From NCBI GenBank assembly GCA_963755995.1, contig CAVWLQ010000003.1:981580-1045579 (forward strand): a stretch of DNA of 64,000 nucleotides. Direction: 5' to 3'. Numbering within the stretch: the stretch's first letter is position 1; the number at the start of each line of letters is the position of its first letter. Under the pieces are notes generated by a model. It saw nothing but the letters and a program-made list of their open reading frames with translations. It made no database searches and had not been told where the DNA came from. Positions 2,250-26,290 of this stretch are shown here, piece after piece. Source of the stretch: an uncultured Chloroflexia bacterium (GTDB lineage: Bacteria > Chloroflexota > Limnocylindria > Limnocylindrales > CSP1-4). The position numbers were made by a program, and so were the translations under genes.

Positions 2250-2445
2250 TCACGCGCCGCGACGAGACGAGGGACCCCCGTTGGCCGGCGACACCGCCGG
2301 GGGGACAACGCAGCCGGCGCCCGAGGATCCCTCTCCTGAAGGAACGGTCCGCCCGCCCGTCTCGTTAGGGCCTGCGAGGCCGATCACGTCCGTTCGTCAC
2401 CCTTTGGTCTGCCACCGGCGCGCGAGCGCTCGTAGACTGGTGGCG

Positions 2446-3174
2446 ATGACCGGCCCGATCGCGCGGCTCTGGCGGCAACCCTCGGGGGTTCTGCTCGCAG
2501 TCCAGCTCACAGCCGTGCTGGTCTACCCCTTCACGGATCAGTCACCGGTCGGTCGGGCGGCATTCTCATTGTTCGCGCTGGTCGTCCTGTTCCTTGCCGT
2601 GCGAGCCGTTCGGGCTACACCCGCCCTGCTGTGGATCGCGGTGCTCCTGGGCGTGCCGATCGTCGTCCTGACCGTCCTCGAGATCCTCGACCCGCTCAAT
2701 GCCCAGGTCATCCTCTGGTCGTCGATCCTGCATGCCGCGTTCTACTTCTACACGAGCTTCGCGCTGCTGCGCTACATGTTCGTCGACCGCTTCGTGACGA
2801 CGGACGAGCTGTGGGCGACCGGGGCGACCTTCACCGTCGTCGCGTGGGCGTTCGCCTACACGTTCATGGCTGTCCAGGTGATCTGGCCCGGTTCGTTCAG
2901 CGCGACGATCGCCCCGGATGCGCCCCGGACGTGGTTCGAGATGCTCTTCCTGTCGTTCACGAACCTCACCAGCGTCGGCCTGTCCGACATCACGCCGGTC
3001 CTGCCTCACGCCCGCTCCTGGGTCATGATCGAGCAGGTGGCGGGACTGCTCTACGTTGCTCTGGTCATCTCCCGGGTCGTCGGGCTGACCATCGCCCGGC
3101 AGCGCACCGCCCACACGGCGCATGTGGCCGGCGACGAGCCCGGCAACGACGCGATACCGGGCGCGCGCTCCTGA
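2446..3174 (+). CDS. ion-channel family membrane protein (2-TM pore / Ion_trans_2-like) with a non-canonical selectivity filter
   Basis: Internal ATG at 2446 (MTGPIARLW...) begins the hydrophobic part of ORF 2200..3174. The pore-like segment is FLSFTNLTSVGLSDITP, compared with the canonical T-V-G-Y-G-D. Confidence 0.6.
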   Translation: MTGPIARLWRQPSGVLLAVQLTAVLVYPFTDQSPVGRAAFSLFALVVLFLAVRAVRATPALLWIAVLLGVPIVVLTVLEILDPLNAQVILWSSILHAAFYFYTSFALLRYMFVDRFVTTDELWATGATFTVVAWAFAYTFMAVQVIWPGSFSATIAPDAPRTWFEMLFLSFTNLTSVGLSDITPVLPHARSWVMIEQVAGLLYVALVISRVVGLTIARQRTAHTAHVAGDEPGNDAIPGARS

Positions 3175-3175: not shown

Positions 3176-3583
3176 TCAGGGGCTCGTCCCCGCCCCGATC
3201 ACCCGAGTCAGCAGGGCGAAGCCATCGGCCGTGCCCTGCCAGCGAGCCTCCAGGTCGGCGATCCCGACACGACGACGCACATAGCGCATCGCGACGATCG
3301 CCACGACGACGTCGTCCAGAGGCCCGAGGACGGGAATGAACTCCGGGATCAGGTCGATCGGGCTGAGGATCCAGGCGACGAGCCCGATGACCACGAGACG
3401 GACGTCCGTCGGCACGGCACCATCGCGGATGAGCGAGCGAAGCAGGCGCAGGACGTCGGGGATGACCGCCAGAAGCTCGCGAAGGGGCACGTCCCGAGGG
3501 CGAAGCACGAAGAACAGGACGAGCAGGGCGAGCCACAGGAACAACAGCCCGACGATCACGCCGATGACCAGCTCGATACTCAT
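3176..3583 (-). CDS. DUF1232 (YkvA-like) membrane protein
   Basis: 135 aa with an N-terminal TM and the characteristic ...LSPIDLIPEFIPVLGPLDDVVVAIVAMRYV... motif. Confidence 0.75.
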   Translation of the reverse strand: MSIELVIGVIVGLLFLWLALLVLFFVLRPRDVPLRELLAVIPDVLRLLRSLIRDGAVPTDVRLVVIGLVAWILSPIDLIPEFIPVLGPLDDVVVAIVAMRYVRRRVGIADLEARWQGTADGFALLTRVIGAGTSP

Positions 3584-3642
3584 GCGTCAACGATCGTATC
3601 GGGCTACGCCGGAAGGTCACACGCTTGCTGCCGGACATAAGG

Positions 3643-3668
3643 AAACGGCCCCGAAGGGCCGTTTTGTG
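3643..3668. terminator. bidirectional hairpin terminator, inferred to be the native terminator of the tRNA-Cys operon
   Basis: AAACGGCCC-CGAA-GGGCCGTTTT is a 9-bp GC stem. It is flanked by an A tract on one side and a T tract on the other. It lies immediately downstream (minus strand) of the orphan tRNA-Cys 3' fragment. Confidence 0.65.
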
Positions 3669-3674
3669 CTTGTG

Positions 3675-3722
3675 AGTGGAGGCGACGACCGGATTCGAAC
3701 CGGTGAATAGAGGTTTTGCAGA
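3675..3722 (-). repeat. orphan 3' fragment of tRNA-Cys (anticodon loop to CCA plus 2 nt): distal att-like direct repeat
   Basis: 48/48 nt identical to 32931..32978 (AGTGGAGGCGACGACCGGATTCGAACCGGTGAATAGAGGTTTTGCAGA). No tRNA 5' half follows it, and the sequences diverge at 3723 versus 32979. Confidence 0.9.
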
Positions 3723-3804
3723 ACTGGGGATAGGCCAATCCCCCACCCAATTCGTGCTCAGTGTATCCGCTGGAGTGGGCTGGAAACCGGTCGAGGATGA
3801 CACG

Positions 3805-3828
3805 TTCTGCCGACCATTCTGCCGACCA
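3805..3828 (+). repeat. tandem 12-mer TTCTGCCGACCA x2, sub-terminal island repeat
   Basis: Perfect tandem copies at 3805-3816 and 3817-3828. The surrounding roughly 36 bp (GATGACACGTTCTGCCGACCATTCTGCCGACCATCT) recurs at 32662-32697 with a few mismatches. Confidence 0.8.
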
Positions 3829-3849
3829 TCTGCTGGGCCGGACGCCGAC

Positions 3850-4329
3850 CTAACCAACAGCTCCAACACGCGGTTCGAGCACGACGACAGCCGTCTTCCT
3901 GGTCCGCATCGCCGCCCAGGCGTCGTAATCGTCGCTGAACTCGCGCCAGCGGGCCCATAGTCGATCACGTTCCTCGCCTTCCGCGGCGCGACCGCGGACT
4001 TTTCGGGGTCCGTCCACCAGCTGGACCGTCGTGTCGGGCTGTGCCTGGAGGTTCAGCCACCAGGCGGGCTCTGCCTCCGCCCAGCCATTCATGGCCAGGG
4101 TGACCAGGTTCGGTCCGTCTTCAAGGTAGCCGAAGATCGCGACCCGTGGCTGCCCTGAGCGTCGTCCGAGCGTCCTCAGGCGCATCATCCCGAACTTGCT
4201 GCCGGGCTCTGGTGGGCGGAGGCCGATCCGCCCTGCTGTGAACCTAAACAGCGCGCGGTGGAGTATCCAGGCAGCACGGACGATCGGACGCGGGGGAAGC
4301 GTCGCCGCCTGCTTTCGCGCGGCGGTCAT
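3850..4329 (-). CDS. deazaflavin (F420)-dependent nitroreductase family protein (TIGR00026 / DUF385, Ddn-like), copy a
   Basis: 159 aa with family-typical GRRSGQPRVAIFGYLEDGPNLVTLAMNGWAEAEPAWWLNLQAQPDTTVQL...ERDRLWARW. Its ATG overlaps the stop of the upstream DUF4386 gene (ATGA at 4326-4329). Confidence 0.85.
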   Translation of the reverse strand: MTAARKQAATLPPRPIVRAAWILHRALFRFTAGRIGLRPPEPGSKFGMMRLRTLGRRSGQPRVAIFGYLEDGPNLVTLAMNGWAEAEPAWWLNLQAQPDTTVQLVDGPRKVRGRAAEGEERDRLWARWREFSDDYDAWAAMRTRKTAVVVLEPRVGAVG

Positions 4330-5126
4330 GCCGCACCTGCAACCGCTGTTGCGGTGGCCGGTGATGGGGCAACGATCGGCAACACGTCTCCGGATCGAGC
4401 AAGCAGGGTGGCGGCAGCACCGGGCTGGAAGCCCCTGAAGATGAGGTACAGACCAAGGATCCCGATCTCCCAGACGATCTCGAGGACCGTCGCGAGGCCC
4501 TGCGCGGGGGAGCCGAGCTCGATGACACCGAAGAGGATGGCGATACCGGAAGCCATCACGAGCGGGCCACCGATCATGCCGAACATCGTCAGGCGGCGCG
4601 AGAGCAGGCCCGAGCGGTACATGAGATAGCCCAGCAGCAGCCCGTTCCCGAGGCCGGACATGAAACCTGGCCCGAGCAGGAAGGTCCAGTCATGGACGGC
4701 GACGAGTGACTGGCTGGCGACGAGCAACGAGCCGGGATCGGCGCCGGCCCCGTCCTGCCGGAGCGTCTCAACGGCCAGGAGGCTGAGCATGCCGACGACG
4801 ATGAGCGCGGCTTCGATGAAGCGAGCGGCGACGTAGCTGAGTGCGAGGGTCTCGTTCTGGCGCCGCAGGAGCGGGAACAACACCATCGCGGTGGCGATGT
4901 TGGCGATCACGGTGAGGATCTCGAAGAAGGCGCCGAGGGACACGCTATTGCCGGCACCAGGACCGAGGACGTAGGCCGGGTCGTTGAGGACCGGGCCGTA
5001 AGCCAGGACGCCGGGGATGGCAAAGACGAGGGTCAGGACGAACAAGATGCCGACTGCAAACGCAGTCTTTCGCTGGGCGTCCATCGGGACTCGGTTCGTT
5101 GCTGGGGTTCGAACGGGGTTCGTCAT
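4326..5126 (-). CDS. DUF4386 membrane protein, copy a
   Basis: 266 aa, multi-TM. RKTAFAVGILFVLTLVF...LGAFFEILTVIANIATAMVLFPLLRRQNETLALSYVAARFIEAALIVVG... matches the DUF4386 pattern and the paralogues at 26291 and 30909. Confidence 0.8.
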   Translation of the reverse strand: MTNPVRTPATNRVPMDAQRKTAFAVGILFVLTLVFAIPGVLAYGPVLNDPAYVLGPGAGNSVSLGAFFEILTVIANIATAMVLFPLLRRQNETLALSYVAARFIEAALIVVGMLSLLAVETLRQDGAGADPGSLLVASQSLVAVHDWTFLLGPGFMSGLGNGLLLGYLMYRSGLLSRRLTMFGMIGGPLVMASGIAILFGVIELGSPAQGLATVLEIVWEIGILGLYLIFRGFQPGAAATLLARSGDVLPIVAPSPATATAVAGAA

Positions 5127-5177
5127 GTCGATCTCCTTGTCGGTAGTCGGTAGGTGTATGCCAAGGCTCGACGTGGG

Positions 5178-5864
5178 CTATGCGGCGCTGGTCTGATCGG
5201 GCTGCGACAGCACCAGGGCAGGGAGTGGTTCAGAGGCTGGCGCTCGCTGCTCCGCCCAGAGCGCGTAACCCAGCCATGCGAGACCCAGGCCGATCGGCAC
5301 CGCCGCGATACGGGGTGCGTCCAGGGCGGCCGTCAGGGGCGCCGATACGATGATCCCGAAGGCGAACAGAGCGGCCGCCGGACGGGGCAGGATCCGCGCT
5401 CGGATGGTGGCGATGCCAAAGACGATGCAACCACCGAGGAACAGGGCGCTTGAGATCGAGTAGATCGTCGGCAAGGCACCGAGATCGAGATCGGACGGCG
5501 CATTCTCGACCATCCCCAGCAAGCCGGTGACATAGGCTGGCGACAACGCGGCGAGGATCGGCTCGATGAATGCCTCGACGAAGGTGAACGCAGCCGTGAT
5601 CAGAAGCCCCAGGCTCAGCGCGATGTAGCCGACGAGGCCGAGCCAGCCCGCCTTCTCGACCTGACGGGCGTAGATCCCGGTGAGGCCGGCCAGGAAGAGG
5701 ACCAGCATCACGCAGCTCGCCTGGTGGATGGCCGACCAGGCCGGCGTCGTGACCGATTGCAATGTCTCGGGCGGGTGGATGGGCTGGATGACCACGAACA
5801 GGACTCCGGCCGCGATCGCGGCGACGCCAGTCGAGCGAATCAGTCCAGGGGCAGTGACCTTCAT
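5178..5864 (-). CDS. polytopic membrane protein of unknown function (present only in cassette copy a)
   Basis: 228 aa with about 6 hydrophobic segments and good coding appearance. Its ATG overlaps the stop of the upstream small gene (ATGA at 5861-5864). Confidence 0.65.
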   Translation of the reverse strand: MKVTAPGLIRSTGVAAIAAGVLFVVIQPIHPPETLQSVTTPAWSAIHQASCVMLVLFLAGLTGIYARQVEKAGWLGLVGYIALSLGLLITAAFTFVEAFIEPILAALSPAYVTGLLGMVENAPSDLDLGALPTIYSISSALFLGGCIVFGIATIRARILPRPAAALFAFGIIVSAPLTAALDAPRIAAVPIGLGLAWLGYALWAEQRAPASEPLPALVLSQPDQTSAA

Positions 5865-6184
5865 CGTGTCCTCCGTTCATGTGAGATGTAGGAATCGGTT
5901 GTAGAGATGGGTTCGGTGCCTGCTGAGGTCGCGAGTGGACGTTCCGACTCGGACTCGTTGACCGAGATCAGCGTCACGCCCATGTCGCGCAACTTCTGGA
6001 GCAGACCATGGAGAGCCGCCTGATCGGCAACTGGTCCGGAGACCAGGGTCGTGCCGTCGCTCGCGTGGGTCAGGGACATCCCGCCGAGCCAATCGGCCCA
6101 GCTGCCGTCGAGGCGTCCCTTCAGGCGGATCTCGTACCGCGTCGCCTCGTGGCGCTGGTCAGTCGATCCGCGGCGCTTGTCCAT
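5861..6184 (-). CDS. conserved small protein of unknown function (RYEIRL...DQAALHGLLQK-R family), copy a
   Basis: I prefer the internal ATG at 6184, which is preceded by GGAAGGAG. The core RYEIRLKGRLDGSWADWLGGMSLTHASDGTTLVSGPVADQAALHGLLQKLRDMGVTLISV aligns with the copies at 25984 and 30615. Confidence 0.75.
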   Translation of the reverse strand: MDKRRGSTDQRHEATRYEIRLKGRLDGSWADWLGGMSLTHASDGTTLVSGPVADQAALHGLLQKLRDMGVTLISVNESESERPLATSAGTEPISTTDSYISHERRTR

Positions 6185-6261
6185 CTGGCTCCTTCCTCTG
6201 TCCCACTTGTCGGCGATGCCGGTGGCTCCGACGGCCGGGGAGTCCAAGGTGGACGGGAAGG

Positions 6262-6290
6262 TGGGGACGTCGCCTCCCCATCACTGGGGA
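6262..6290 (-). promoter_or_regulatory. tripartite operator-like repeat TCCCCA-N4-TGGGGA-N7-TCCCCA (read on the minus strand), between LAL-a and small gene a
   Basis: Half-sites lie at 6285-6290, 6275-6280 and 6262-6267, with a fourth at 6297-6302. Copy b has the identical architecture at 25892-25920. Confidence 0.55.
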
Positions 6291-6305
6291 AAGCGATGGG
6301 GAAAG

Positions 6306-9038
6306 TCAGCGGTCGCCGACTCGCGAAAGGAGGCCGAGCTCTTCGCCGCGCCGAACGGCGGCCCGGCGGCTATTCACCCCGAGCTTTGCGTAGATGCTCT
6401 TGGTGTGCGAACGGACGGTGCTCAGCCCAACGACCAACTCGTCCGCGATGCCGGAGCCATCAAGATCCGAGGCGAGCAACCGAAGGACATCAAGCTCCCG
6501 CTCGCTGAGCGGCTCAGCGAGACTTTGTCCATCGCCTGAGGGACGGCCGATTCGTCCGAAGGCGTCGACGAGGCGACGAACGTACTCCGGCATGATGTCG
6601 CGTTTGGCGGCCGCCGCCAGCATCGCTGCCATCGGGGCACCCTCGCCCACGAACGATCGGACATAGCCGTCCGGCTCTGCGGTGGCAAGTGCTCGACCGA
6701 GCGGCTCGAGCCCTGCCGTGCTGCGACCGCGCTCGTGCTGAGCCAGCGCCTGCAGGATGAGGATCTCGATGACACTCCGCCACCGCTCCCCCGTTTCGGC
6801 GGCGATGAGCAGCCGCTCGAGAAGTGCGACGGCTTGTTGGATCGAGCGCGGATCATGGACCCGGGTCCCGCGAGCGAGGAGCACCCTCGCGAGGGTGATG
6901 TACTCGTACTCGCTCAGGTAGCTGAGGTCGTCGTCCACTGACAGACCGCGCTCGCCCACCCAGGCCTCTGCCTCGCGCACATGGCCCCGGGCGGCATGGA
7001 TTCGCGCTACTTGCGCCGGGATGGGGCGAACGAGCGGGTAGTACTCGCTCACAAACACACGCTGAGCATCAGCAAGCAATGCGAGGGCACCGTCGGCATC
7101 CCCATCAGCCATACGAAGCTGTGCCTTGGCCACCCGCGACCGGTATGGGTTCTGGGCCAAGCCAGCATTGTCCCCGAGGTCATCACTCTGTCGCAGATGA
7201 CCAGCCGCGCCATCGAGATCGTTCCACTCGAGCAACAGCTCGCTCATCCCGACGTGCATGTCGCCTGCACCACGGAGGACCGTCGTCCGGTCAGTCGCCA
7301 TGCGCAAGCCGCGTTCGTAGGTTCGCATCGCCTCGTGCAGACGACCTTGGGCGACGCGAATCTCCGCCAGTGGTCGGTTGCAACCGATCGCGTCGACGGC
7401 GTGGCCCGCACGCTGCAAGGAGGCCATCGCCTCGGACCAGAAGCCATGGGCCGCCTCGAGGTCGCCGTTCCCCCAATGCGCGAAGGCGAGAAACCCCGCC
7501 CCCCCGGCTCGCCCGAGCGGATCGCCATCGCCGGCCAGGGTGAAGGCTTTCAGCGCGAAGGCTTCTACGCGCTCGGGGTCACCCTCGAGTTGCGCCTGGG
7601 CGGCTCGATACAGGGCGACCGTACTCGGCAACCGCTGGAACTCAGCTTCGTCCGCCACGACCATCGGCCCGGGCGCGATCGTCTGGTTTTCACCCTTGCC
7701 GGATGTCGGTTCCAGCCATCGCTCGGCGCCTTGCAGGAGCGCTTCGATGTCGGCGACCTCGCCATGGGCCATGAGGGTTCCGACATACCCCACGCTCAGG
7801 ACCGGCCGGACCTCGAATAGATAATCGGGAAGCTGCTCGAACCACTGTCGCATCGTCCCCTCTTGGCGCGCCCGGCGGAGCCCCGGGATCGCCAACTCGA
7901 TCATGCCGGCTGCCCGCTCGAAGTCTTCCCCAGCCAGAGCGTGGCGAATGGCGTCGTGTGGCTCGCCACTCTGCTCGAACCAACGGCTCGCGCGCCGGTG
8001 GAGGTCAAGGGCGCGGTCCGGCTCTTCGCGCACCAGGCGCGCCCGGAGGACATCCGCGAACAGGTGGTGGTATCGATACCACTCGCGCCGAGCATCCAGG
8101 GGGATCACAAAGAGATTCCGCCGATCGAGGAGCTCGAGCATGCTCTGGCCGCCGTCGAGACCCGTGACCGCATCGCATAGTGGGCCGGACAGCCGATCGA
8201 GGATGCTCGTCCGTAGGAGGAATTGGCGGATGTCCTCGGGTTGGCGCTGCAGGACTTCCTCGGCGAGGTAGTCGACGACGAAGCGATCGTCTCCAGTGAA
8301 GCTCGCGATGAAGGCACCGATGTCGTCGCGGCCCTGCATCGACAAGGCGGCAAGCTGGAGCGCCGCGATCCAACCCTCGGTCCGCTCCTCCAGCGCGGCG
8401 ACCTCGTCCGACTCGAGGTCCAGATCGGCCGCCTGATTCAGGTATGCCGCGGCCTCGTCATGCGTGAAGCGCAGTTCTGCCGCCCGTACCTCAACGAGTT
8501 GCCCTTGCGCCCGGAGGCGCGCCAGGGGGAGGGCTGGATCGGCGCGCGTTGTGATCGCGACGTGCGCTGATGGTGGCAGGCACTCGACCAGGAACGACAC
8601 CTGGTCGAGGACATCGCTCGCGTCGATGACATGGAAGTCATCGAACACCAACATGACATCGGAGCCGACGGACCCAATCTCGTTAGCGAGTGATGTCACG
8701 ACCGTCTCGATGGGCGGTGGTCGGGACCCCTCCACCATCGCGATGGTCTCTGCGGCCGACGGCACCGCCCGGTGGAACGCGGTGGCGACGCTGAACCAGA
8801 ACGCACTGGATTCGTTCTCGGCTGTATCGAGCGACACCCAGACCGGGAGCAGGTCGTCTGAGACCGAGGCGAGCCAAGTGGCAAGCAGCGTGGTCTTGCC
8901 GAACCCAGGCGGCGCGGAGATGAGAGTGACCTTAGCGTGAGGTGCTCCACGCAACCGCTCCGAAAGCCGATCCCGGCGCACCAAGTCCTCGCGCGGGCGA
9001 GGAACGTAGAACTTCGCATCGGGAAGGGTGCGGGCCAC
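6306..9038 (-). CDS. MalT-like large ATP-binding LuxR-family (LAL / STAND) transcriptional regulator, copy a
   Basis: 910 aa. It has an N-terminal P-loop ([13 protein letters not shown]), a long helical/TPR-like middle region and a C-terminal LuxR HTH ([12 protein letters not shown]...[24 protein letters not shown]). Confidence 0.9.
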
Positions 9039-9235
9039 GCGTCAGGGTATCGCGAGCGCTATCGAGCTGCTCCGCCGATGGGCCCGGGCCGATCTGTCGC
9101 AAGAACGCCGCAGAGCGTCCGAACGTCGTCAGTCTCGGTGCTTGGGGTCGTGATTTCGTGCGACCCTACACTCTCATTGAGGCGTCCGTGACCCGCAGTT
9201 TGCCGCAGCGGCCGCCTCATCCCCAGGAGCTACCA

Positions 9236-11548
9236 ATGACCGGCAAAGCCACCGCAACACGCGGGAACCTGCCGGCGGAGCTGACAAGCTTCATCGGCCG
9301 GCGCCACCAACTCCAAGACGTGAAGTCTGCCTTGACGGGTGCGCGTCTCGTCACCCTTGTCGGTCCTGGCGGGGTTGGTAAGACTCGCTTGGCACTGCGG
9401 TCAGCGAGCGATCTGAGCCGCGGCATCCCCGACGGCGCGTGGATGGTCGAACTCGAGGGACTCCGGGACTCCGAGCTCGTCACCAAGGCTGTCATGACAT
9501 CGCTGGGGCTCCGAGATGAGTCGAGCCGTTGGCCCGTCTCCAGGCTGATCGACTACGTGGCGTCGAAACAGCTTCTACTCGTCCTCGACAACTGCGAGCA
9601 TTTGATTGACGCCTGCGCGGTGCTCTCAGACGCCATTCTCCGTGAGGCCCCGGGCGTGCGGATTCTTGCCACCAGCAGGCAGCCCCTCGGTGTCGCAGGC
9701 GAGACCGTCATCCAGGTCGGCCCGTTATCGGTACCGGAAGACGAGGGGCAGCTCGTGCCGGAACGGATCGCCCAGTGGGACGCGATCGCCTTGCTCGTCG
9801 AGCGAGCGCGTGAGGCTGGCGCGGCGTTCGAGGTGACCCCAGAGAACCAGAAGGCCGTGGTCGAGCTGGCGCGCCGCCTGGATGGGATCCCTCTGGCGAT
9901 CGAGCTCGCGTCCGTCCGTCTCCGCACCCTCGGCCTTGATCAGCTCGTCGAGCGACTGAACGACAGGTTCCATCTGCTGGTCGGGGGAAGCAGGACCGCA
10001 CCGTTGCGCCACCAAACCCTCGAAGCCACCATCGCCTGGAGCCATGATCTGCTGGGTCAAGACGAGCAGGCCCTCCTGCGCTGCCTGTCTGTGTTCGCCG
10101 GTTCGTTCAGCCTGGAGGCGGCCGAGACGGTCGGCCAGGAGAGCGCGACGATGAAGGCCGACCTGTTGGACGTCCTGACCAACCTCGTCGAGCGATCTTT
10201 CGTCATCCGCGAGGGAACGAGTGGAACAGCGCGTTTTCGAATGCATGAAACGATGCGCGAGTTCGCTCGGCTGCGGCTCCTCGAGGCGGACGAGGCGGCG
10301 GCGGCCAGGAGCGCGCACCTCGCCTACTTCGCTGGCCTCTGCCGGTTCAGGGAGGCCGATGTCGCACATGCGGACGTTGCGGGCAGGCTCGCCTGGCTCG
10401 ATGAACTGGACCTCGAAGCGGACAACATCCGCGCCGCTCTGCGGAACTGCCTCGCTGATCCCGATGGCGCGGATCTCGGTCTGACGATGGCGGGCGGTCT
10501 CGGACAGTACTGGAGAAACCGCGCCGTGATAGAGGGCGCCCACTGGATCGACGCCCTGCTCGACCGTCGTGGTGAAGACGACGCCATCCGAAATGAAGCC
10601 CTGTTCGTCAAGGTCGATCTTGCCGTGGTGAAGGGCGACTATGCCGCTGGCCTGAACGCGGCCACCGAAGCCAGCGGGATCGCCCGCCGCTTGAAGGCCG
10701 ACGCGTTGCTGGTCCGGATCCTCGCGAACCAGGCCGCGCTTCAGGTCATTGGGGGCGACCTGTCGGGAGCTCGCGCGACCTCGGCTGACGCTACAGCGCT
10801 CGCGGCACGCCTTGGCGACGACATGTCGTTCATCTCGGCCGCCCAGTCCGATGCCTTCATCGCGTTCCTTGATGGCGACTTCGTCCGGATGCGCGACGTC
10901 GGCCTGGCCGCCGCGGCGCGCTGCCGAGAAGCGAATGAGGCCTTCATCCTCCCAGTACACCTCACCAGCGCGGGAATGGCCGCCTTGATGCTCGGTGAGT
11001 CTGCCGTTGCCGAGACGGCCCTCGTCGATGCCCTGCAGGCCAGCATCGTCATCGACGACCGTCCTGGGTTGGTGCTGAGGATGGAGATGCTCGCAAGCAG
11101 CGCTGCGATGACGGGCAGGGCGCAGCGTGCCGCTGAGCTATTGGGGGCATGCGAGATGCTGCGCGGTCGTATCGGCGCAGAGCTCAGCCCGTTCACGCGT
11201 CAACTCGTCGAGGCGGCTCGAGCACAGGCGCAGGCTGCGCTCGGCGAAACCCGCTTCAAGAAGGCCTTCGACGCGGGAGCCCACCTCGACCGGGACGAGG
11301 CCGTGGGGCTCGCGATCGGCGCGAAGGTGGATCGGGATCCCGCGCCGACGCGCGACCGAACCGGTCACCCGCTCGGCAAACGCGAACAAGAGGTGGCGGA
11401 GCTGATCGCTGTGGGTTTGAGCAACAAAGAGATCGCCTCTCGCCTATTCCTGTCCGAGCGCACCGTGGAGACCCACGTCTACAACATCCTCAACAAGCTT
11501 GGGGTGAACTCCAGGGTCAGCATCGCCTCCTGGGTCACTGCCAAGTAG
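9236..11548 (+). CDS. AAA/NB-ARC-like ATPase - TPR - LuxR HTH transcriptional regulator (COG3903-type)
   Basis: Start chosen at ATG 9236, preceded by AGGAG ([26 protein letters not shown]...). It carries a P-loop ([13 protein letters not shown]) and a C-terminal LuxR HTH ([42 protein letters not shown]). The upstream 98 codons of ORF 8942..11548 are rejected. Confidence 0.85.
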
Positions 11549-11815
11549 CGACGCGCCCTCGAGGCGGGTGATCTCGCGGAGACGCCCAGGCGGCAGGAGG
11601 GCCAGGCTCATGAAACGTCGCGCCGACTCCATGCTGGCCGCCTCGATGAGGCAGACAAGCCCGCCGTCGTCACGATCGTGGCCCGTAAGGAACGTGCGCA
11701 CAGCGATCGGCGACTCCGGCATCCGGGTCGTCGCTGCGTCCAGCATCCGCGCGGCGCGCTCCAGGTCGCGGTCGCTTGCGTCCGCCATGTGGACCTCGAT
11801 CAAGTAGATAGGCAT
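11444..11815 (-). CDS. DUF4242 family protein
   Basis: [10 protein letters not shown]...[30 protein letters not shown]... fits the roughly 90-aa DUF4242 pattern. The last 35 or so codons overlap the convergent LuxR gene, so the true stop may lie earlier or be obscured by an indel. Confidence 0.6.
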
Positions 11816-11871
11816 GGGCCTGATGTTCGTTGGCCCATCGGGCTTTCCACATCGCGGGGAACACCGAGCGG

Positions 11872-11906
11872 GTACTTAGAAGCAAGCCCTGCGGGTCTCT
11901 AAGTAC
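11872..11906. promoter_or_regulatory. inverted repeat GTACTTAGA-N17-TCTAAGTAC in the divergent DUF4242 / qor-like promoter region
   Basis: Perfect 9-bp arms at 11872-11880 and 11898-11906. They are AT-rich in a very GC-rich context. The left arm starts 57 nt from the DUF4242 start codon. Confidence 0.5.
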
Positions 11907-12005
11907 TCGATAGGTGTTCGCCCGGATGGGCCTGGCGACCCTCATCGGTAGGTTGCAGTCAGGCGCATTCCAGTCGGGTGCGCCAGCCGCCACCGAGGAG
12001 ATCCG

Positions 12006-12980
12006 ATGCAGGCCATCGTCCAGGACAAATACGGCTCAGCCGAGGTTCTCCGCCTCACGGAGATCGAGAAGCCCGCGATCGGGGACCACGATGTGTTGGT
12101 TCGGGTTCGTGCGGCCGGCGTCAACCCGGCCGACTGGGCGCTGATGAACGGCTTCCCGTACATCGCGCGGCCCGCGCCTCTGTACGGCCTGCTCAAGCCA
12201 ACTAACCCGGTCCGCGGAACGGACGTCGCGGGGCAGGTCGAGTCCGTTGGCGGCGGCGTGACGCGGTTCCACCCGGGGGACGAGGTCTTCGGCTCGTCGG
12301 TCGGTTCGTATGCCGAGTTCGCCGCTGCCGCGGAAGACACGCTGGCGATCAAGCCCTCCAACCTGACATTCGACCAGGCGGCCACGGTGCCGATGGCCGG
12401 GACGGTCGCGCTGCAAGCGATCCGCGATCACGGCAAGGTCGGGCCTGGACAGCAGGTGCTGATCAACGGCGCCTCGGGTGGCATCGGCACCTTCGCGGTC
12501 CAGATCGCGAAGGCTCTGGGTGCAGAGGTCACCGCCGTGGCCAGCGCCCGGAACGTCGACCTGCTCCGATCCATCGGCGCGGACCACGTCATCGACTACG
12601 CAACGGAGGACTTCACCCGGACCGGCGAGCGGTACGACTTCATCCTCGACAACGTATCGAACCGCTCGCTGACCGAGCTGCGGCGCGCGCTCACACCGAA
12701 CGGGATGCTCATCCCGAACGGGGGCAATTTCGGCAATCACTGGTTCTCCAGCGCCGGGCGCCTTGTGCGGGCGACCGTGCTGTTCCGCTTCGGCGGCCAG
12801 CGATTGGGGCGGTTCCTGGTGTCCATGAACCACGCAGACCTCGTCGTCCTCAAGGAACTGATCGAGGCCGGCAAGCTCACGCCTGTCATGGATCGCACGT
12901 ATCCGCTGAGCGCCGTGGCGCAGGCGATGGACCACGTGGGCCAGGGACATGCCCAGGGAAAGGTCGCGATCACCGTATGA
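12006..12980 (+). CDS. NAD(P)H:quinone oxidoreductase / zinc-type alcohol dehydrogenase superfamily (MDR) protein
   Basis: 324 aa. VLVRVRAAGVNPADW..., the Rossmann motif INGASGGIGTFAVQIAKALGAEV and the ending ...GHAQGKVAITV are typical of Qor-like MDR enzymes. Confidence 0.85.
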   Translation: MQAIVQDKYGSAEVLRLTEIEKPAIGDHDVLVRVRAAGVNPADWALMNGFPYIARPAPLYGLLKPTNPVRGTDVAGQVESVGGGVTRFHPGDEVFGSSVGSYAEFAAAAEDTLAIKPSNLTFDQAATVPMAGTVALQAIRDHGKVGPGQQVLINGASGGIGTFAVQIAKALGAEVTAVASARNVDLLRSIGADHVIDYATEDFTRTGERYDFILDNVSNRSLTELRRALTPNGMLIPNGGNFGNHWFSSAGRLVRATVLFRFGGQRLGRFLVSMNHADLVVLKELIEAGKLTPVMDRTYPLSAVAQAMDHVGQGHAQGKVAITV

Positions 12981-13054
12981 CGCGCCACCCCACTGCGCTC
13001 GATCCCGACACTCTGCGGCCGTCCGGCCGCCCAATCCATCGACAAGGAGACGAA

Positions 13055-13831
13055 ATGACATCCAACACTCAGCTCCGCGACGCGGTTGGTGAAGCCGACC
13101 TGACGTTGGAGGACCCGCAGGGCCCCGGCAAGCGTTACTCCAGGATCTTCGGCGCGCTCTTTATCGCCGGGTTCCTCTTTTACGGTATCGGCTTCGGCCT
13201 GGTGAGCTCGGTGACTACGGCGCCGGACTTCATGTCGACGCTTGCCGCCAACTCGACCGTGCTCGTGGTTGGCGCATTCCTGATGCTCCTCAACACGGCC
13301 CTCGACATCGGGAAGGGTGTCCTGTTCTTCCCGATCGCTGAGCGCCGGGGCAAGCGCACCGGGCTCGTCTACCTCGCCGCAATCACAGCCCAGGTCGTCC
13401 TCCTGGACCTCGGGGTGCTGTTCCTCCTGATGCTTGTACCGCTGAGCGCATTCGTCACCGGCGCCACCGACAGCTGGGCCACTGGGCTCGGATCGCTCCT
13501 GACGCAGGCGAATACCCTCGCATACGAGCTTGGCCAAGGCACCCTGGCGTTCGGGGCACTGTTCATGACCTGGTTCGTGTTCCGGACGCGGATGGTGCCC
13601 AGAACCCTCGCACTCTGGGGCGTCGTCGGCTACGCGATCCACCTCACTGGAGCGGTTGCCGAGATCTTCGGGGTCCACGTGTCGCTCTTGCTGTCGCTCC
13701 CCGCAGGACTGTTTGAAGTCGCCTTTGGGGTCTGGCTGATCGCCAAGGGGTTCAACTCGATCGTCACGTCGCCTGGTCGAGGACTCGCTGATCGGCCCCA
13801 GCCTTCGGCGACGTTGGCACCGGCTCAATGA
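13055..13831 (+). CDS. DUF4386 membrane protein
   Basis: Internal ATG at 13055, preceded by AAGGAGA. Multi-TM, with the characteristic C-terminus ...MVPRTLALWGVVGYAIHLTGAV...LPAGLFEVAFGVWLIAKGF. Confidence 0.75.
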   Translation: MTSNTQLRDAVGEADLTLEDPQGPGKRYSRIFGALFIAGFLFYGIGFGLVSSVTTAPDFMSTLAANSTVLVVGAFLMLLNTALDIGKGVLFFPIAERRGKRTGLVYLAAITAQVVLLDLGVLFLLMLVPLSAFVTGATDSWATGLGSLLTQANTLAYELGQGTLAFGALFMTWFVFRTRMVPRTLALWGVVGYAIHLTGAVAEIFGVHVSLLLSLPAGLFEVAFGVWLIAKGFNSIVTSPGRGLADRPQPSATLAPAQ

Positions 13832-13936
13832 GCACCGGACTCGGTGCCAAATAGCCCATTCATCGGCGCGTCGGGCCAGTCTCGACGCGTCGGTGCTGCC
13901 ATCCAGACCTGATCTCACGCAAACCTTGAAGAGGAG

Positions 13937-14356
13937 TTGGTCATGAACAAGGCAACGATCACCAGACTGTTCATCGGCGGCGGACTTGCCATCGTCACGG
14001 GAGCCATCGTCGCCGTCATCGCCATCGGGATCGCGATGGCCAACGGCATCTTCGTCGTGAACGGCCCCGATGTCGTAGGAGTCAAGGAAAGCGTGCTCGC
14101 GTTCTCCCTTCTCGGTCTCGCCATCGTCGGTACTGTCGCGATCCTGGCCGGTCTGATCGCGGGTCTTGTGGCGTGGCTCGGAGCGCTGATGAATACCTGG
14201 CAGTTGGACAGCAAGGCCTGGTTCGTCGCTCTTCTGCTGTTTGGGATCTTCAACTTCGGGTTCTTCGCGATGATCGCGTTCCTCGCCGCCGGACCGGATG
14301 GCAAGACCGACGCGGAACTTCGGGGAGCGCAGGCCTCCCGAGCGACACCGGCATGA
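13937..14356 (+). CDS. small membrane protein, unknown function
   Basis: 139 aa with 4 predicted hydrophobic helices. GAGGAG lies upstream. Its stop overlaps the SDR start (ATGA at 14353-14356). Confidence 0.6.
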   Translation: MVMNKATITRLFIGGGLAIVTGAIVAVIAIGIAMANGIFVVNGPDVVGVKESVLAFSLLGLAIVGTVAILAGLIAGLVAWLGALMNTWQLDSKAWFVALLLFGIFNFGFFAMIAFLAAGPDGKTDAELRGAQASRATPA

Positions 14357-15243
14357 CCGGCATGTTCGAGGATGCGACGTCGATGGCCGGGAAGATCGTC
14401 TTGGTCACCGGCGGCACCAGCGGCATCGGCAAGGCGACCGCGACAGGTCTCGCCTCGATGGGAGCCCACGTGGCCATCACCGGACGTGACCTGGGGCGCG
14501 CGGAGGCGGTCGCAGTCGAGATCCGGCGAGCGACCGGCAATCCACGCGTCGATGCGTTTGGCGCTGACTTGTCGTCCCAGGCGCAGGTGCGGCGACTTGC
14601 CGCCGAGGTCCGCGACTCGTACACGCGGCTGGATGTCCTGATCAACAACGTCGGCGGGTTCTGGGCCACCCGACACGTCACGTCGGATGGCCTGGAGCAG
14701 ACCTTTGCCGTGAACCACCTGGCCGCGTTTCTCCTCACCCATCTGCTTCTGGATCGGCTCAAGGCCAGCGCCCCTTCACGAGTGGTCACGGTCTCGTCCG
14801 GCGCCCAGTCGATGGGGACGATCAACTTCGAGGATCTCCAAGGCGAGCGCGCCTACTCGGGACAGGCGGCCTACAACCAGTCGAAGTTGGCCAGCGTGAT
14901 GTTCACGTACGAGCTGGCCCGCCGCCTCGACGGCACTGGTGTGACGGCGACCGTGCTGCATCCAGGAGTGGTCAACACGGCATTTGGTGCCGAGGATCCG
15001 TCGCGGATCTTCAAGATCATCGTCCCATTCGTTCGACCGTTCATGAAGACACCCGAGCAAGGCGCAGCAACGTCCATCTACCTTGCCTCTTCTCGGGCCG
15101 TCGAAGGAATGACTGGCACCTACTTCGCGAACAGCAGGCCCAAGACATCAAACGAGAAGTCGTACAACGAGGAGGCTGCAAGCCGCCTGTGGAGGGTCAG
15201 CACAAGTCTTGTCGGGGCGGAGTCGTCCCGGTACCGCGGCTGA
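14353..15243 (+). CDS. short-chain dehydrogenase/reductase (SDR) family oxidoreductase
   Basis: Start at ATG 14353. It has the TGGTSGIGKAT cofactor motif, NNVG, and the catalytic YNQSK context. Confidence 0.85.
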   Translation: MTGMFEDATSMAGKIVLVTGGTSGIGKATATGLASMGAHVAITGRDLGRAEAVAVEIRRATGNPRVDAFGADLSSQAQVRRLAAEVRDSYTRLDVLINNVGGFWATRHVTSDGLEQTFAVNHLAAFLLTHLLLDRLKASAPSRVVTVSSGAQSMGTINFEDLQGERAYSGQAAYNQSKLASVMFTYELARRLDGTGVTATVLHPGVVNTAFGAEDPSRIFKIIVPFVRPFMKTPEQGAATSIYLASSRAVEGMTGTYFANSRPKTSNEKSYNEEAASRLWRVSTSLVGAESSRYRG

Positions 15244-15381: not shown

Positions 15382-17721
15382 TCAGGCGGCCGGCGTGACC
15401 GGCTCCGTTCCGCCGACGCTGATCAACCACCGGGCGAGTTCGATCCTCGAGTTCAAACCGAGTTTGTTGAGCATGTTGGTGACGTGCGCCTCAACCGTGC
15501 GCTCGGAGATGAAGAGCCTGGTCGCGATATCGCGGCTCGTCATCTCCTGCGCGATGAGGCGTGCGATCTCCAACTCGCGTTTGGTGAGGCGTATCTCGGT
15601 CTTCGGCTTGACGGGCGTCGTGGCCGGCAACGGCAGTCGGTCCTCCACGGCGAAGGCGACTGCGTCATCGATCGTCATCGTGAGACCGCCGTGGTACGAC
15701 TCGTCATAGGGCGTCTGCCCGAGGCCTTCCAGAGCAAGGGCGATCGAACGCTCGTGTTGCTGCCGCTGGGCATCCGGGACTTCGAGACCAGTGACCTTGC
15801 GGACGTGCTCGGCCGAACCCAGGAGCATCGCGGCACGGTGATGCCCACCACCTTCGGCCGCCATCCAGGCAAGGGTCTCGAGTAGAAGCTGAAGTCCGGA
15901 CCGGTCGTCGATGACGTGCTTCGTCGCGGTGCCGGCCCTCGCCTGGACCTCGGCGAGCCGTCGGTCGCCCGCTCGCCAATGAACTTGCGACGTGGCGCCG
16001 AGCATGTACCCGCGAGCCCACAGCTCGCCTCGCGCCTGGCTGATCCCGACACCCTCCTCACCGAGTTCGAGCGCCCGTTCTGACTGACCGGCCATCGGCA
16101 GGATGTTGCACAAGGCTGCCGTCGCGACCGCCTGGCTCGGCCAGCTCCCGAGCGATCTCGCGAGTGCGAGCGATGACTCGGCCAGCTCGACGGATTCGGT
16201 CAGGTTGCCCGACATCGCAAGTGGGATCGAGAGCCAGGCGAGCGACAGGGCCATCGCCTCCGGATCGCCCGACGCCGTCGCAGCTCGAAGACTTTCGCGT
16301 GCCAGCAATTCGCGGGCCTCGACGTCGTTCTGACTATTGGCCATCACGGCTGCGGCGCGCAGGTAGTGCGCCCGAGCGGCGGAGTCCTCGGCAGTCTGCG
16401 TAGCGAGCGACGTCAGCATCCGTCGAAGGTCACCGAATTGTCCGCGCGAGGACCAATACGCAAGGAGATGCTGGGCAAGGTCGGCCCCGACTGGCGCCGC
16501 GTCAGGTTCTCGGGCACAGAACTCGAGCGCCGCCCAGAGATTGTCGCGCTCCAGGTCCATGCGCTTGAAGAGTTCGGCCTGTCGGTCGTCAAAGGCCCCG
16601 ACCGACCTGGCCAGCCCCGTGACCCATGTCAGGTGCCGGCCTTGGGTGCCGACAGCCTCGCCAATGTCTCGCAGGCGCTCACGACCGTATTGACGAATGG
16701 TCTCGAGGAACGAGTAACGGGGCGTATTTCCGCTCGTCAGCTCGCGCCGAACGATCGACTTCTCGACCAATGACCCGAGCAGCTCGACGACCCGCTCTTG
16801 CGGCACGCGATCGTCGGCGCACACCTCGATCGCGGCATCAGCATCGAAGCCGCCGGCGAACACCGAGAGTCGGGCCCAGAGGACCTGTTCGGCCTCGTCG
16901 AGCAGTCCGTAGCTCCAGCCGATCGTTGCCTCGAGTGTCTGCTGACGAGCCTCGGCCCCCCGGTTCCCGCTCCCCAGGGCTGACAGGGAACTGGCCAAGC
17001 CCTGGTTGAGCTGGTCGATGCTCAACGCACCCAACCGGACGGCAGCCAGCTCGATCGCAAGGGGGATCCCGTCCAGACGCTGGCAGAGTCGGAGGATCGG
17101 CTCAGCGTTCTTATCGTCGATCGCGAAACCGGGAAGCACGGCCGCCGCGCGCTCGCTCAGCAACCGGACGGCCTCCGAGTTCGCGAGGCTGTCCGTCGAA
17201 GGCTCGTCAGCGTCGAGCGGCAGCGACATCGGTGGGACGGGCATCCTGACCTCGCCGACCACCCCGAGCGGCTGTCGGCTGGTGGCGAGGAGATACACCT
17301 CCGGACAAGCTTTGAGGAGCGTGCTGGCCAGGACGGCACACGCGTCCAGAAGGTGCTCGCAGTTGTCGATCACGATCAGGAGACGTTTTCCGGCAAGGAA
17401 GCTCGTGAGCGTGACGAGCGACCAATCGGACGAGCGGTCTTCGGCACCAAGGGCGACGAAGATGGCCTGGGGGACGAGCAAGGGATCCTGAACCGGAGCA
17501 AGCGGTGCGAACCAAACGCCATCGGGAAAGCCGCGCGCCACCTCAGCCGCAGCGCTGACCGCCAGCCTCGTCTTGCCCACCCCGCCACTGCCCGTCAGCG
17601 TCAGCAGACGGGTGGTCGCCAACAGCCTCTTGACTTCGTGCAGTTCGTGGCGCCGTCCGACGAAGCTTGTCGGCTCGACCGGGAGTCTCTGGGTCCGAGC
17701 CCTGGCGGCGGGGGTCTTCAC
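15382..17721 (-). CDS. AAA/NB-ARC-like ATPase - TPR - LuxR HTH transcriptional regulator (COG3903-type), second copy
   Basis: Start chosen at GTG 17721 (VKTPAARARTQRLPVEPTSFVGRRHEL...), just after the stop of the upstream DUF4242 gene. It has a P-loop ([13 protein letters not shown]) and a C-terminal HTH (LTKRELEIARLIAQEMTSRDIATRLFISERTVEAHVTNMLNKLGL). Confidence 0.85.
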   Translation of the reverse strand: MKTPAARARTQRLPVEPTSFVGRRHELHEVKRLLATTRLLTLTGSGGVGKTRLAVSAAAEVARGFPDGVWFAPLAPVQDPLLVPQAIFVALGAEDRSSDWSLVTLTSFLAGKRLLIVIDNCEHLLDACAVLASTLLKACPEVYLLATSRQPLGVVGEVRMPVPPMSLPLDADEPSTDSLANSEAVRLLSERAAAVLPGFAIDDKNAEPILRLCQRLDGIPLAIELAAVRLGALSIDQLNQGLASSLSALGSGNRGAEARQQTLEATIGWSYGLLDEAEQVLWARLSVFAGGFDADAAIEVCADDRVPQERVVELLGSLVEKSIVRRELTSGNTPRYSFLETIRQYGRERLRDIGEAVGTQGRHLTWVTGLARSVGAFDDRQAELFKRMDLERDNLWAALEFCAREPDAAPVGADLAQHLLAYWSSRGQFGDLRRMLTSLATQTAEDSAARAHYLRAAAVMANSQNDVEARELLARESLRAATASGDPEAMALSLAWLSIPLAMSGNLTESVELAESSLALARSLGSWPSQAVATAALCNILPMAGQSERALELGEEGVGISQARGELWARGYMLGATSQVHWRAGDRRLAEVQARAGTATKHVIDDRSGLQLLLETLAWMAAEGGGHHRAAMLLGSAEHVRKVTGLEVPDAQRQQHERSIALALEGLGQTPYDESYHGGLTMTIDDAVAFAVEDRLPLPATTPVKPKTEIRLTKRELEIARLIAQEMTSRDIATRLFISERTVEAHVTNMLNKLGLNSRIELARWLISVGGTEPVTPAA

Positions 17722-17732
17722 GGAAGCCCACC

Positions 17733-18092
17733 CTACACCCCGGCTGATGTCCTGGGGTCGGGCAAGTCGAATGCGGGCTCGATGCTTTGGAACGGGGCGA
17801 GGGACGCTTCGTTCACGGCTCGGACGAGCGCGAGGCTGACGCTTGCGAACCGCGAGAGCAATCGCCCTTGTCCGGGAATGAACGTTGAGCTCAGGTATGT
17901 GACCCGATCGCCGCGACGCTCGAACCGGTCGACGGCCTCGCACAGGGCCGCCTGGAGCATCACCAGCCCGCGCTCGGTGATCGCCGGCAGGCGACGCTCC
18001 ACGAGGAAAAGGCGCAGCTGGTCAGTCGACGGCTCATCGCAGGAGACCGGCGGCCGGCTCGGATGCCGGTCGCTCGGCGGTTTTGTTTCCAT
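17733..18092 (-). CDS. DUF4242 family protein, co-oriented with and directly upstream of the LuxR regulator
   Basis: ...[76 protein letters not shown]... fits DUF4242. I prefer ATG 18092 over 18134 because it gives the same 57-nt spacing to the GTAC inverted repeat as at 11815. Confidence 0.65.
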
Positions 18093-18148
18093 GTGATGGA
18101 GCCTACGAGCGCCCACGGCATCAGGGATCGTCACCGTCTCGTAGGGAA

Positions 18149-18215
18149 GTACCTATTTGTCGTTGGCGACACGGCGCACACGATCGAACGATCTCAGTGA
18201 AGCCGAAATAGGTAC
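18149..18215. promoter_or_regulatory. inverted repeat GTACCTATTT-N47-AAATAGGTAC in the divergent DUF4242 / DUF4386 promoter region
   Basis: Perfect 10-bp arms at 18149-18158 and 18206-18215. They begin with the same GTAC as the repeat at 11872. Confidence 0.45.
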
Positions 18216-18308
18216 CAACATACGAGTCGGATCCGATGGCGGCCGCGCGGTTCCTTCGCAGTCTGCAGAGGTCACGCATCAGCGGACAGCAGACAAAGGA
18301 GCGAGGAC

Positions 18309-19101: not shown

Positions 19102-19219
19102 GCCAACGAACCGCCGGACCCAATTTCCTCCGTCGCGGCGGCATTCGCCGCCGCGACGGGACCTTTCTGCAGCCAAACCACGGAGCGCACCCGCTCCGCC
19201 GACCAAAGGAGCGACCGCC

Positions 19220-19655: not shown

Positions 19656-19826
19656 GGCAACGAGCGTTTGACTCGGACCGCCTTTCGGCCGCACCCGGAG
19701 GGCGGTTCAGTTGGCTCCAAGGGGTGCGGGGACTTCGTCGCGTGAGGACGCGGTGGCTTGGCACGACCTGCCCCATCGAAATCGGCTGAGACGATCGCGT
19801 CCGCCGATCCCGACGACGTAACGCGG

Positions 19827-21649: not shown

Positions 21650-21742
21650 GGTCACGACCGTGAGCAACGAGGAGCTGCCGAGTGGAGCCGATCCATCCAA
21701 GACAGCGACCGCGCATGGACACGCCCGCACGGTCGCCGCGAC

Positions 21743-26259: not shown

Positions 26260-26290
26260 CCCAATACGAACGAACGAAAGGGAAACCGAC

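Follow-up and report, generated by a model that had tools for sequence, protein, structure and literature searches.

Introduction

MalT-type regulators, members of the LAL family (large ATP-binding LuxR proteins), are abundant in soil bacteria, and few of them have known targets or binding sites. Escherichia coli MalT recognizes the box GGGGA(T/G)GAGG, and a 7-2-7 spacing of half-sites is bound by a dimer of NarL-type LuxR helix-turn-helix (HTH) domains. The boxes of MalT promoters are arranged in direct repeat, and NarL-type sites consist of inverted heptamers (PMC6099782). TpdR of Rhodococcus jostii TMP1, a LAL regulator, activates xenobiotic catabolism via repeats located near its promoter, and promoters of the TpdR type combine direct repeats and 7-bp inverted sequences with poor -35 and -10 hexamers (PMC6099782). 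Here, we investigated a 64,000-nucleotide stretch of DNA (the window) from an uncultured Chloroflexia bacterium (GenBank assembly GCA_963755995.1, contig CAVWLQ010000003.1, positions 981,580 to 1,045,579), which carries on its minus strand a LAL-headed gene cassette, cassette a. The regulator of this cassette, LAL_a, has the same domain order as E. coli MalT, namely, a P-loop STAND NTPase, a MalT-type TPR sensor and a LuxR/GerE HTH. We report that cassette a represents a widespread and undescribed module, which combines a conserved operator of four boxes with exchangeable cargo genes.

Cassette a and its relatives in other genomes

Cassette a is a real five-gene unit in which a regulator adjoins an operon encoding a small protein, two membrane proteins and a reductase. 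The coordinates and domains that a sequence-only reading had assigned to its five minus-strand open reading frames (ORFs) were confirmed with the ORF list and with Pfam and NCBIfam searches. LAL_a (6306-9038) encodes a MalT-type STAND/LuxR regulator of 910 aa, in which we found a MalT-like sensor (TPR_MalT, PF17874; 219.7 bits for a cut-off of 45), a C-terminal LuxR HTH (GerE, PF00196; 47.2 bits for a cut-off of 23.5) and the NTPase motifs of the LAL/MalT family, i.e., the P-loop GFGKTT and a Walker B-like MLVFDD. AAA_16 and NACHT matched only below the Pfam cut-offs. The NCBIfam model of MalT (PRK04841) aligned across residues 7-822 with a score of 370 bits, below the equivalog cut-off of 537. 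On the basis of these matches, LAL_a is classified as a member of the LAL/MalT family and not as MalT itself.

The next gene, small_a (5861-6184, inside the ORF 5861-6247), encodes a 107-aa protein of the RYEIRL/DQAALHGLL family, and the Shine-Dalgarno sequence GGAAGGAG lies 5' of its ATG at 6184. It is followed by mem228 (5178-5864), which encodes a 228-aa polytopic membrane protein, by DUF4386_a (4326-5126), which encodes a 266-aa membrane protein (PF14329; 135.7 bits for a cut-off of 27.6), and by NR_a (3850-4329), the 159-aa product of which is by family a Ddn-like F420H2-dependent reductase (PF04075, 70.3 bits for a cut-off of 22; TIGR00026, 63.8 bits for a cut-off of 46.35). Neither small_a nor mem228 matched any Pfam or NCBIfam model. 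The translational coupling previously proposed for this operon could be read directly from the sequence, with ATGA overlaps between small_a and mem228 (cacgATGAaggtc, 5864-5861) and between DUF4386_a and NR_a (ggcATGAccgcc, 4329-4326).

The conservation of this gene order was investigated in 80 loci obtained from a scan of species-representative genomes with an alignment of the small protein. These loci derived mostly from soil Chloroflexia and Actinomycetota metagenome-assembled genomes (MAGs), with two from Cohnella, and neighbours were scored by hidden Markov models built from the window copies against six-frame ORFs. We observed a LAL gene immediately 5' of the small gene, on the same strand, in 75 of the 80 loci. 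DUF4386 was present downstream in 70 of 75, and two further loci carried a mem228 homologue only. A reductase gene followed DUF4386 less often (24/68), and DUF4260 followed the reductase in 6 of those 24 loci. In the a-type cassettes of L001, L015, L049 and L056, mem228 lies between the small gene and DUF4386, as in the window. The association of LAL, small protein, DUF4386 and TIGR00026 thus recurs elsewhere, as had been predicted, with the full four-gene order in 24 loci. Judging from these neighbourhoods, the conserved core of the module is a LAL regulator, the small protein and a membrane protein, and the reductase is an optional cargo gene.

Recurring cargo in more distant operons also consisted of small membrane proteins and oxidoreductases. 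In L113, LAL and the small gene are followed by genes of the mem228 family, DUF2306, DUF6326, ADH_zinc, DUF4386 and an alpha/beta hydrolase; in L117, by those of an Rce1-like protease, DUF4386, the mem228 family, a multicopper oxidase and FMO; and on a Chlorohelix plasmid, by that of an MMPL transporter. On an Acaryochloris plasmid, the small gene has no LAL gene directly upstream; it is immediately followed by two DUF6326 genes, and ADH and VOC genes are close by. Carriers that are in culture include Cohnella xylanilytica DSM 25239 (L058), Blastococcus sp. CT_GayMR19 (L035) and Ca. Chlorohelix (L119).

Two further copies of the cassette are present on the plus strand of the window, and both were confirmed to have the gene order of cassette a in the opposite orientation. 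Cassette b (23068-27564) comprises a LAL gene (~23068-25821), an operator (25879-25936), a small gene (25984-26259), DUF4386 (26291-27100) and a reductase gene (27097-27564). Cassette c (27691-32608) comprises a LAL gene (27691-30441), an operator with TCATCAC boxes (30492-30548), a small gene (30615-30890), DUF4386 (30909-31704) and a reductase gene (31704-32207), which is indeed followed by a DUF4260 gene (32204-32608). Within the window, mem228 was found in copy a alone, in agreement with the sequence-only reading. Identity among the three copies was, as reported before, moderate and not near-identical (pairwise 38-72% aa over four components): 54-61% for LAL, 54-70% for the small protein, 38-50% for DUF4386 and 63-72% for the reductase. 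The sensor (TPR) region was the most diverged part of LAL, with 35-60% identity versus 65-77% for the NTPase and HTH.

LAL_b probably starts at a TTG (23068) that overlaps, in the region 23060-23071, with the stop codon of the solute-binding-protein gene upstream. As other b-type cassettes resemble it only from 23087 onward, copy b lacks an upstream region of its own at this site. We also noted frameshifts in DUF4386_c, which is split across two frames near 31495-31550, in a third DUF4386 gene (18793-19101) and in ABC permease genes (19827-21700). These breaks may be long-read indel errors and not true pseudogenes, as breaks of this kind recur in many related MAG loci.

A conserved operator and its match to the regulator

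The operator and promoter of cassette a (6246-6302, minus strand) contain four heptamer boxes, TCCCCAT (box1, 6302-6296), TCCCCAG (box2, 6290-6284), ATGGGGA (box3, 6281-6275) and TCCCCAC (box4, 6267-6261), followed by the -10-like hexamer CACCTT (6251-6246). Box2 and box3, separated by 2 nt, form a 7-2-7 palindrome. All three copies share one layout: heptamer, 5-6 nt, heptamer, 2 nt, inverted heptamer, 7 nt, heptamer, 9 nt and -10-like hexamer. The corresponding arrangement, box1-N5-box2-N2-box3(inverted)-N7-box4-N9-TAnnnT, was observed across phyla in 72 of the 78 LAL-small spacers, with the consensus TCACCAC-N5-TCACCAC-N2-GTGGTGA-N7-TCACCAC-N9-TAGCTT. A looser composite regular expression gave 81 matches in 2.18 Mb, 78 of which were scored just 5' of a small gene; among the other three, at least two were likewise located within ~110 nt 5' of one. 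Moreover, the window contains exactly three palindromic sites, one per cassette.

The assignment of the -10 hexamer was supported by loci L010, L038, L055 and L076 (actinobacterial loci included), since the ATG of their small genes sits 6-7 nt past TAnnnT, which is the geometry of leaderless transcripts. With this assignment, box3 would lie near -39, where the box2-box3 palindrome would also be centred, and box4 would occupy about -28 to -22, in the interval from the -35 to the -10 position of a putative promoter with no real -35. A scan of positions 3500-9400 for a consensus sigma-70 promoter and for a terminator revealed no promoter and no convincing terminator. The leaders of the small genes (window positions 6185-6245, 25937-25983 and 30549-30614, and the matching parts of the other loci) often carry, 15-30 nt ahead of the Shine-Dalgarno sequence, a potential GC-rich hairpin of variable sequence and position, such as GGCCGG-TACTG-CCGGCC in copy c. 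An Rfam scan of the whole window detected tRNAs only, with no riboswitch and no leader.

The box variant tracks the residue that precedes TVR(S/T)HT in the recognition helix of the LAL HTH. TCACCAC boxes go with Asn or His at this position, and most relatives combine TCACCAC with Asn. TCCCCAC boxes, as in copies a and b, go with Ser. TCATCAC boxes go with Ala (in most cases), Pro or Ser together with an Arg replacing Lys (HTR in most relatives), and copy c has TCATCAC boxes with Pro and HTS. As HTH and boxes form a matched pair that differs between c and a/b, the c circuit is probably insulated from those of a and b.

A mosaic regulator was observed in L029 (cassette 5066-9557, LAL ~5066-7804). 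The last 50 residues of its LAL (96% identity), its operator, its small protein, its DUF4386 and its reductase (95-96%) are all b-type. The LAL as a whole is only 66% identical to that of b, with 36-84% outside the last 50 residues and 36-60% in the TPR sensor region. Since a b-type HTH, operator and cargo are here paired with a diverged remainder of LAL, the HTH travels with operator and cargo and the sensor is replaceable. L029 thus appears to be a natural sensor swap ahead of a fixed output.

The cassette had been expected to co-diverge as a unit of four or five genes. This was not the case. In a set of 30 dereplicated cassettes, the distances of LAL and the small protein were correlated (Spearman Mantel r = 0.55, p = 0.0002), and those of DUF4386 correlated with neither of the two (r = -0.01 and 0.02). 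For the reductase (8 cassettes), the Mantel test was not significant. A high Mantel correlation for all components was rejected, as it was inflated by about a dozen near-identical b-type cassettes; the correlation of LAL with the small protein alone held after dereplication. Individual loci illustrate the exchange: the LAL of L042 is 74% identical to that of b, but its DUF4386 is only 37% identical to that of b and 80% identical to that of L051, whose LAL is c-like (71%). Going by these comparisons, DUF4386 and the reductase are shuffled between cassettes, and the unit that evolves together consists of LAL, operator and small protein, with modular cargo.

Properties of the encoded proteins

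The small-protein family is very large, with 11,976 clusters at 50% identity (E<=0.001), or 5,308 at E<=1e-10. No Pfam domain was detected in 120 homologues. The AlphaFold2 (AF2) model of the small protein has a beta-alpha-beta-beta-alpha-beta topology, i.e., a ferredoxin-like fold, with a core pLDDT of ~84. A sequence search of the PDB with the small protein gave no match, and Foldseek, PDB sequence and Pfam searches provided no specific match to ACT, HMA or acylphosphatase beyond the generic fold. Helix 2 of the protein (DQAALHGLL..RD.G) is nearly invariant, and in some proteins the small domain is fused to DUF6326, DUF2306 or ADH_zinc.

The AF2 model of DUF4386_a contains six long helices (pLDDT 85.7), and our literature search found no publication on DUF4386. 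The mem228 family comprises at least 1,880 clusters. Profile-profile comparison of mem228 with DUF4386 gave a probability of 20% (E=0.001) over the C-terminal 69 columns only, which is too weak to call homology. The nearest solved relative of NR_a is Ddn (PDB 3R5R, E=1e-14).

Proposed mechanism and physiological role

We propose that LAL_a binds the four heptamer boxes, which begin 3 nt past its own stop codon, and that it would activate the operon small_a, mem228, DUF4386_a and NR_a from a promoter without a usable -35. LAL and the small ferredoxin-like protein would represent the constant pair, with exchangeable small polytopic membrane proteins and oxidoreductases encoded downstream. Between regulator and membrane cargo, the small protein probably acts as the coupling element, and NR_a, as a Ddn-like F420H2-dependent reductase, would be the catalytic effector in copy a. 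Because the recurring cargo consists of small membrane proteins and of oxidoreductases acting on quinone-like or phenolic compounds, the cassette would most likely serve in a response that is induced by a ligand, takes place at the membrane and is directed at hydrophobic redox-active compounds (quinones, nitroaromatics or phenolics, for example). The module itself is real, and the regulatory part of this explanation is well supported by the sequence comparisons; the physiological role, that is, the ligand and the response to redox-active xenobiotics, is what we infer from the cargo. Taken together, the view that cassette a is a self-contained inducible unit, with a LAL-driven operon, a xenobiotic-type membrane response and copies gathered as old lineages, has in our judgement a slightly better than even chance of being correct.

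Several observations weigh against this view. Binding and induction are predictions. The -10 hexamers of copies a (CACCTT) and c (CACGGT) are poor. L059 is an exception to the HTH-box pairing, with TCATCAC boxes and Asn, and, as the covariation follows clades, the number of independent changes behind it is small. The 80 loci, which had been collected with small-protein patterns, are biased toward close relatives. Against the PDB, the model of the small protein gave only generic ferredoxin-fold matches in Foldseek (best E 0.017, TM 0.34-0.44); DUF4386_a had no structural relative (nothing at TM>0.35 in Foldseek), and the mem228 family has neither a Pfam model nor a structural relative. Regarding the role, the reductase is missing from about two thirds of the related cassettes and thus cannot define the function of the module, and transporters and oxidoreductases are common neighbours anywhere. 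Finally, no F420 biosynthesis genes were seen within the window. Its sole CofD-family gene (40655-42061) adjoins whiA and is presumably YvcK-like and not an F420 gene.

The constancy of the LAL-small protein pair could also be explained by signalling. MalT is controlled by MalK, MalY and Aes, and the small protein and DUF4386 might by analogy constitute a membrane sensor and adaptor that control LAL, rather than effectors, with the true LAL targets located elsewhere. We consider this rather unlikely, without being able to call it far-fetched: LAL and the small protein are indeed the constant, co-diverging pair, the near-invariant helix 2 is what is expected of a protein-protein interface, and the small domain is found fused to membrane proteins. 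However, the composite operator was found only before the small gene, so that the local operon is at least the main LAL target. Moreover, the membrane partner is freely exchanged (DUF4386, mem228, DUF6326, MMPL), which would not be expected of a dedicated sensor. Signalling would be compatible with the inducible operon proposed above if the small protein acted as a feedback adaptor.

The tRNA-Cys island and the origin of the three copies

The three cassettes are held by a 29.3-kb island located between 51-nt direct repeats of tRNA-Cys. The right boundary (32931-33009, minus strand) is formed by the intact tRNA-Cys(GCA) gene (32933-33009), the 3' half of which is one repeat copy; the left boundary (3675-3725, minus strand) is a 51-nt copy of this 3' half, identical to 32931-32981 at 50 of 51 positions. 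With the ends placed at this repeat, reductase genes adjoin both ends of the island, as the sequence-only reading had stated. Three related Chloroflexia MAGs (L083, L085 and L091) carry the uninterrupted site, in which the left-flank gene (window 2427-3108) is followed within ~70 bp by tRNA-Cys and then by the same tRNA cluster, with gene synteny onward to window position 42.7 kb. The segment is thus an insertion. A DUF1232 gene (3176-3583) is also absent from these three MAGs. Third-position GC is ~0.77-0.87 within the island and >0.9 to its right.

No integrase was found among the island ORFs. A minus-strand ORF next to tRNA-Cys (32093-32995), which was considered as an integrase candidate, had no Pfam match and is probably spurious. 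Just inside both island ends, we observed a 36-nt direct repeat (92% identical, 3793-3828 and 32659-32694) with tandem TTCTGCCGACCA units, and an extra TGCCGACCA pair is located near the right end (32862-32888). These end repeats and paired units could be recombinase arm-type sites; the 36-nt repeat had no match in any of the fetched loci.

In total, the island contains five DUF4386 genes and five STAND/LuxR regulators; ADH_zinc, SDR, a second DUF4260 gene and an ABC transporter in degraded form are also present. Two of its modules have no small protein and no four-box operator. The first (8942-15243) encodes an NB-ARC-like STAND/LuxR regulator, ADH_zinc (12006-12980), DUF4386, a 139-aa membrane protein and SDR (~14400-15243), and the second (15382-19789) a divergent STAND/LuxR regulator with DUF4386 and DUF4260. 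Outside the island, the ORF 37489-39603 (704 aa) shows a partial match to triosephosphate isomerase followed by a full cofactor-independent phosphoglycerate mutase, and it may be a fusion or two genes run together.

LAL regulators typically head antibiotic gene clusters, with Streptomyces as their best-known source, and F420-dependent reductases tailor some antibiotics. Together with the island oxidoreductases ADH_zinc and SDR, this would fit a self-resistance or tailoring module for a secondary metabolite. We nevertheless regard such a function as improbable, because inspection of the island and of related loci revealed no core biosynthetic genes (polyketide synthase, nonribosomal peptide synthetase or terpene synthase), and because the module recurs as a stand-alone set of 3-5 genes in many contexts and in several copies per genome.

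Each window copy is closer to its counterpart in another genome than to the other window copies. Identities reach 91-99% aa for b (to many MAGs), 82-83% for the small protein of a (to L001 and L049) and 83-89% for DUF4386 and the reductase of c (to L047). At the nucleotide level, cassette b is 90-97.7% identical to the corresponding segments of at least 14 other species-level MAGs (L018, L028, L030, L032-L034, L040, L043-L045, L048-L050 and L070), with sharp ends at 23087 and 27556. The upstream flanks of these matches are mostly unlike each other, and downstream the similarity often continues for another ~1 kb and reaches into a second DUF4386 gene. At four-fold sites, identity with L049 amounts to 0.92-1.00 in the b genes and to 0.54-0.86 in the a genes. 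The lineages also occur in other orders elsewhere, c-like then a-like in L001 and a-like then b-like in L049.

A local origin, in which the three cassettes arose by duplication and inversion inside the island and diverged in place, would account for their identical gene order, for the tandem position of b and c and for the fact that b and c are the closest window pair for LAL, small protein and DUF4386. It is already contradicted by the closer counterparts in other genomes, by the sharply bounded near-identity of cassette b across species, by the difference in four-fold-site identity between b and a genes and by the other lineage orders, and we consider it very improbable. Because of the closer relatives elsewhere and the near-identity of cassette b across species, the three copies are better seen as separate old lineages gathered in the island. 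The copies had been described as diverged paralogues and not a recent duplication. This description is correct, but cassette b looks recently imported and not like a resident paralogue; its sequence identities indicate that it was probably acquired recently.

Several of the b-type matches come from short contigs that had been assigned by binning to unrelated phyla (Verrucomicrobiia, Proteobacteria and Gemmatimonadales), which suggests mis-binning of a multi-copy or mobile segment. The segment 3075-11069 of L045 carries a b-like cassette with a tRNA-Gln gene on either side, accompanied by an HNH gene, a DUF4386 of the second type and a fragment of a tyrosine-integrase gene with a frameshift. 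This segment looks like a small integrative element of ~8 kb. In L040, L044 and L048, a tRNA-Pro or tRNA-Arg gene is instead present 1-2.5 kb upstream of the b-like cassette.

An anti-phage function built on the STAND NTPase, for which the tRNA-linked location, the apparent mobility of cassette b and the frequency of STAND NTPases in defence systems could be cited, is the least probable explanation, since PADLOC gave a weak match to the HTH region of LAL_a only and none for the other four proteins, LAL_a shows the complete MalT architecture, including a DNA-binding output to which the operator is matched, and the cassette encodes no nuclease, protease or other killing effector.

Implications of the module

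We tentatively propose a broader model, in which LAL and the small protein form a portable head, sensor-activator plus adaptor, with a co-evolving four-box operator and an interchangeable membrane/oxidoreductase cargo. Sensors could be swapped before a fixed HTH, operator and cargo, as in L029, and tRNA-targeting integrative elements would carry whole cassettes between soil Chloroflexota. In that case, the small-protein family would represent a new and very large group of partners of MalT-type regulators, perhaps a feedback anti-activator or a link to the membrane cargo. The model goes well beyond the inducible operon itself, and we hold it possible rather than probable. As for the earlier description of the cassette, its account of gene order, domains, orientation, coupling and island-end position was accurate, and its evolutionary interpretation needs correction, as the cargo is modular and b was probably imported recently. 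The operator, in our view the strongest clue to function, was absent from that description.

In this large LAL subgroup, the sequences point to an operator that is clear and conserved, to a recognition helix matched with it and to a defined operon as the local target. In this operon, the small protein is always encoded first; its family has ~12,000 clusters at 50% identity with no Pfam entry. The module also offers a testable route toward the function of DUF4386, the mem228 family, DUF6326, DUF2306 and DUF4260. It is probably also a natural example of insulated parallel circuits differing by one or two operator bases, and regulator-promoter pairs of this kind could be used as orthogonal sets in high-GC hosts. 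Finally, the window illustrates how cassettes accumulate in a tRNA island via import and the swapping of cargo and sensors, and not via local duplication.

Comparison with known systems

The reductases of the three copies, NR_a, NR_b and NR_c, match PF04075 and TIGR00026 above the cut-offs, and the best PDB match is to structures of Ddn (Rv3547), one of the F420H2-dependent quinone or nitro reductases of the FDOR-A group. The identity of NR_a to Ddn is low, about one third of the aligned residues as estimated by eye, and its F420 use and substrate are putative. In the literature, we found no description linking Ddn to a LAL regulator, DUF4386 or the small protein, and none pairing an F420H2-dependent quinone reductase with LuxR.

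The box2-N2-box3 element shares the layout of NarL-type sites, with two inverted heptamers 2 bp apart. It differs from them in the heptamer sequence and in the two extra direct-repeat boxes that flank the palindrome, and the regulator is here a STAND ATPase and not a response regulator.

Promoters of the MalT regulon are likewise activator-dependent and contain several short boxes, one overlapping the -35 region and the others located upstream in direct repeat, and the b-type box GTGGGGATG resembles the MalT box. In contrast to MalT, the boxes are here heptamers in a fixed four-box layout including a 7-2-7 palindrome, the predicted target is the regulator's own downstream operon and not sugar-uptake genes, and the mal system lacks an equivalent of the conserved small partner.

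TpdR and DfdR are likewise large ATP-binding LuxR regulators, and they respond to a small aromatic or heterocyclic compound by turning on a neighbouring operon. The repeats of TpdR-type promoters differ in sequence and layout from the cassette operator. Moreover, TpdR controls a defined degradative pathway, whereas the output of the cassette is a small ferredoxin-like protein, membrane proteins and an optional reductase.

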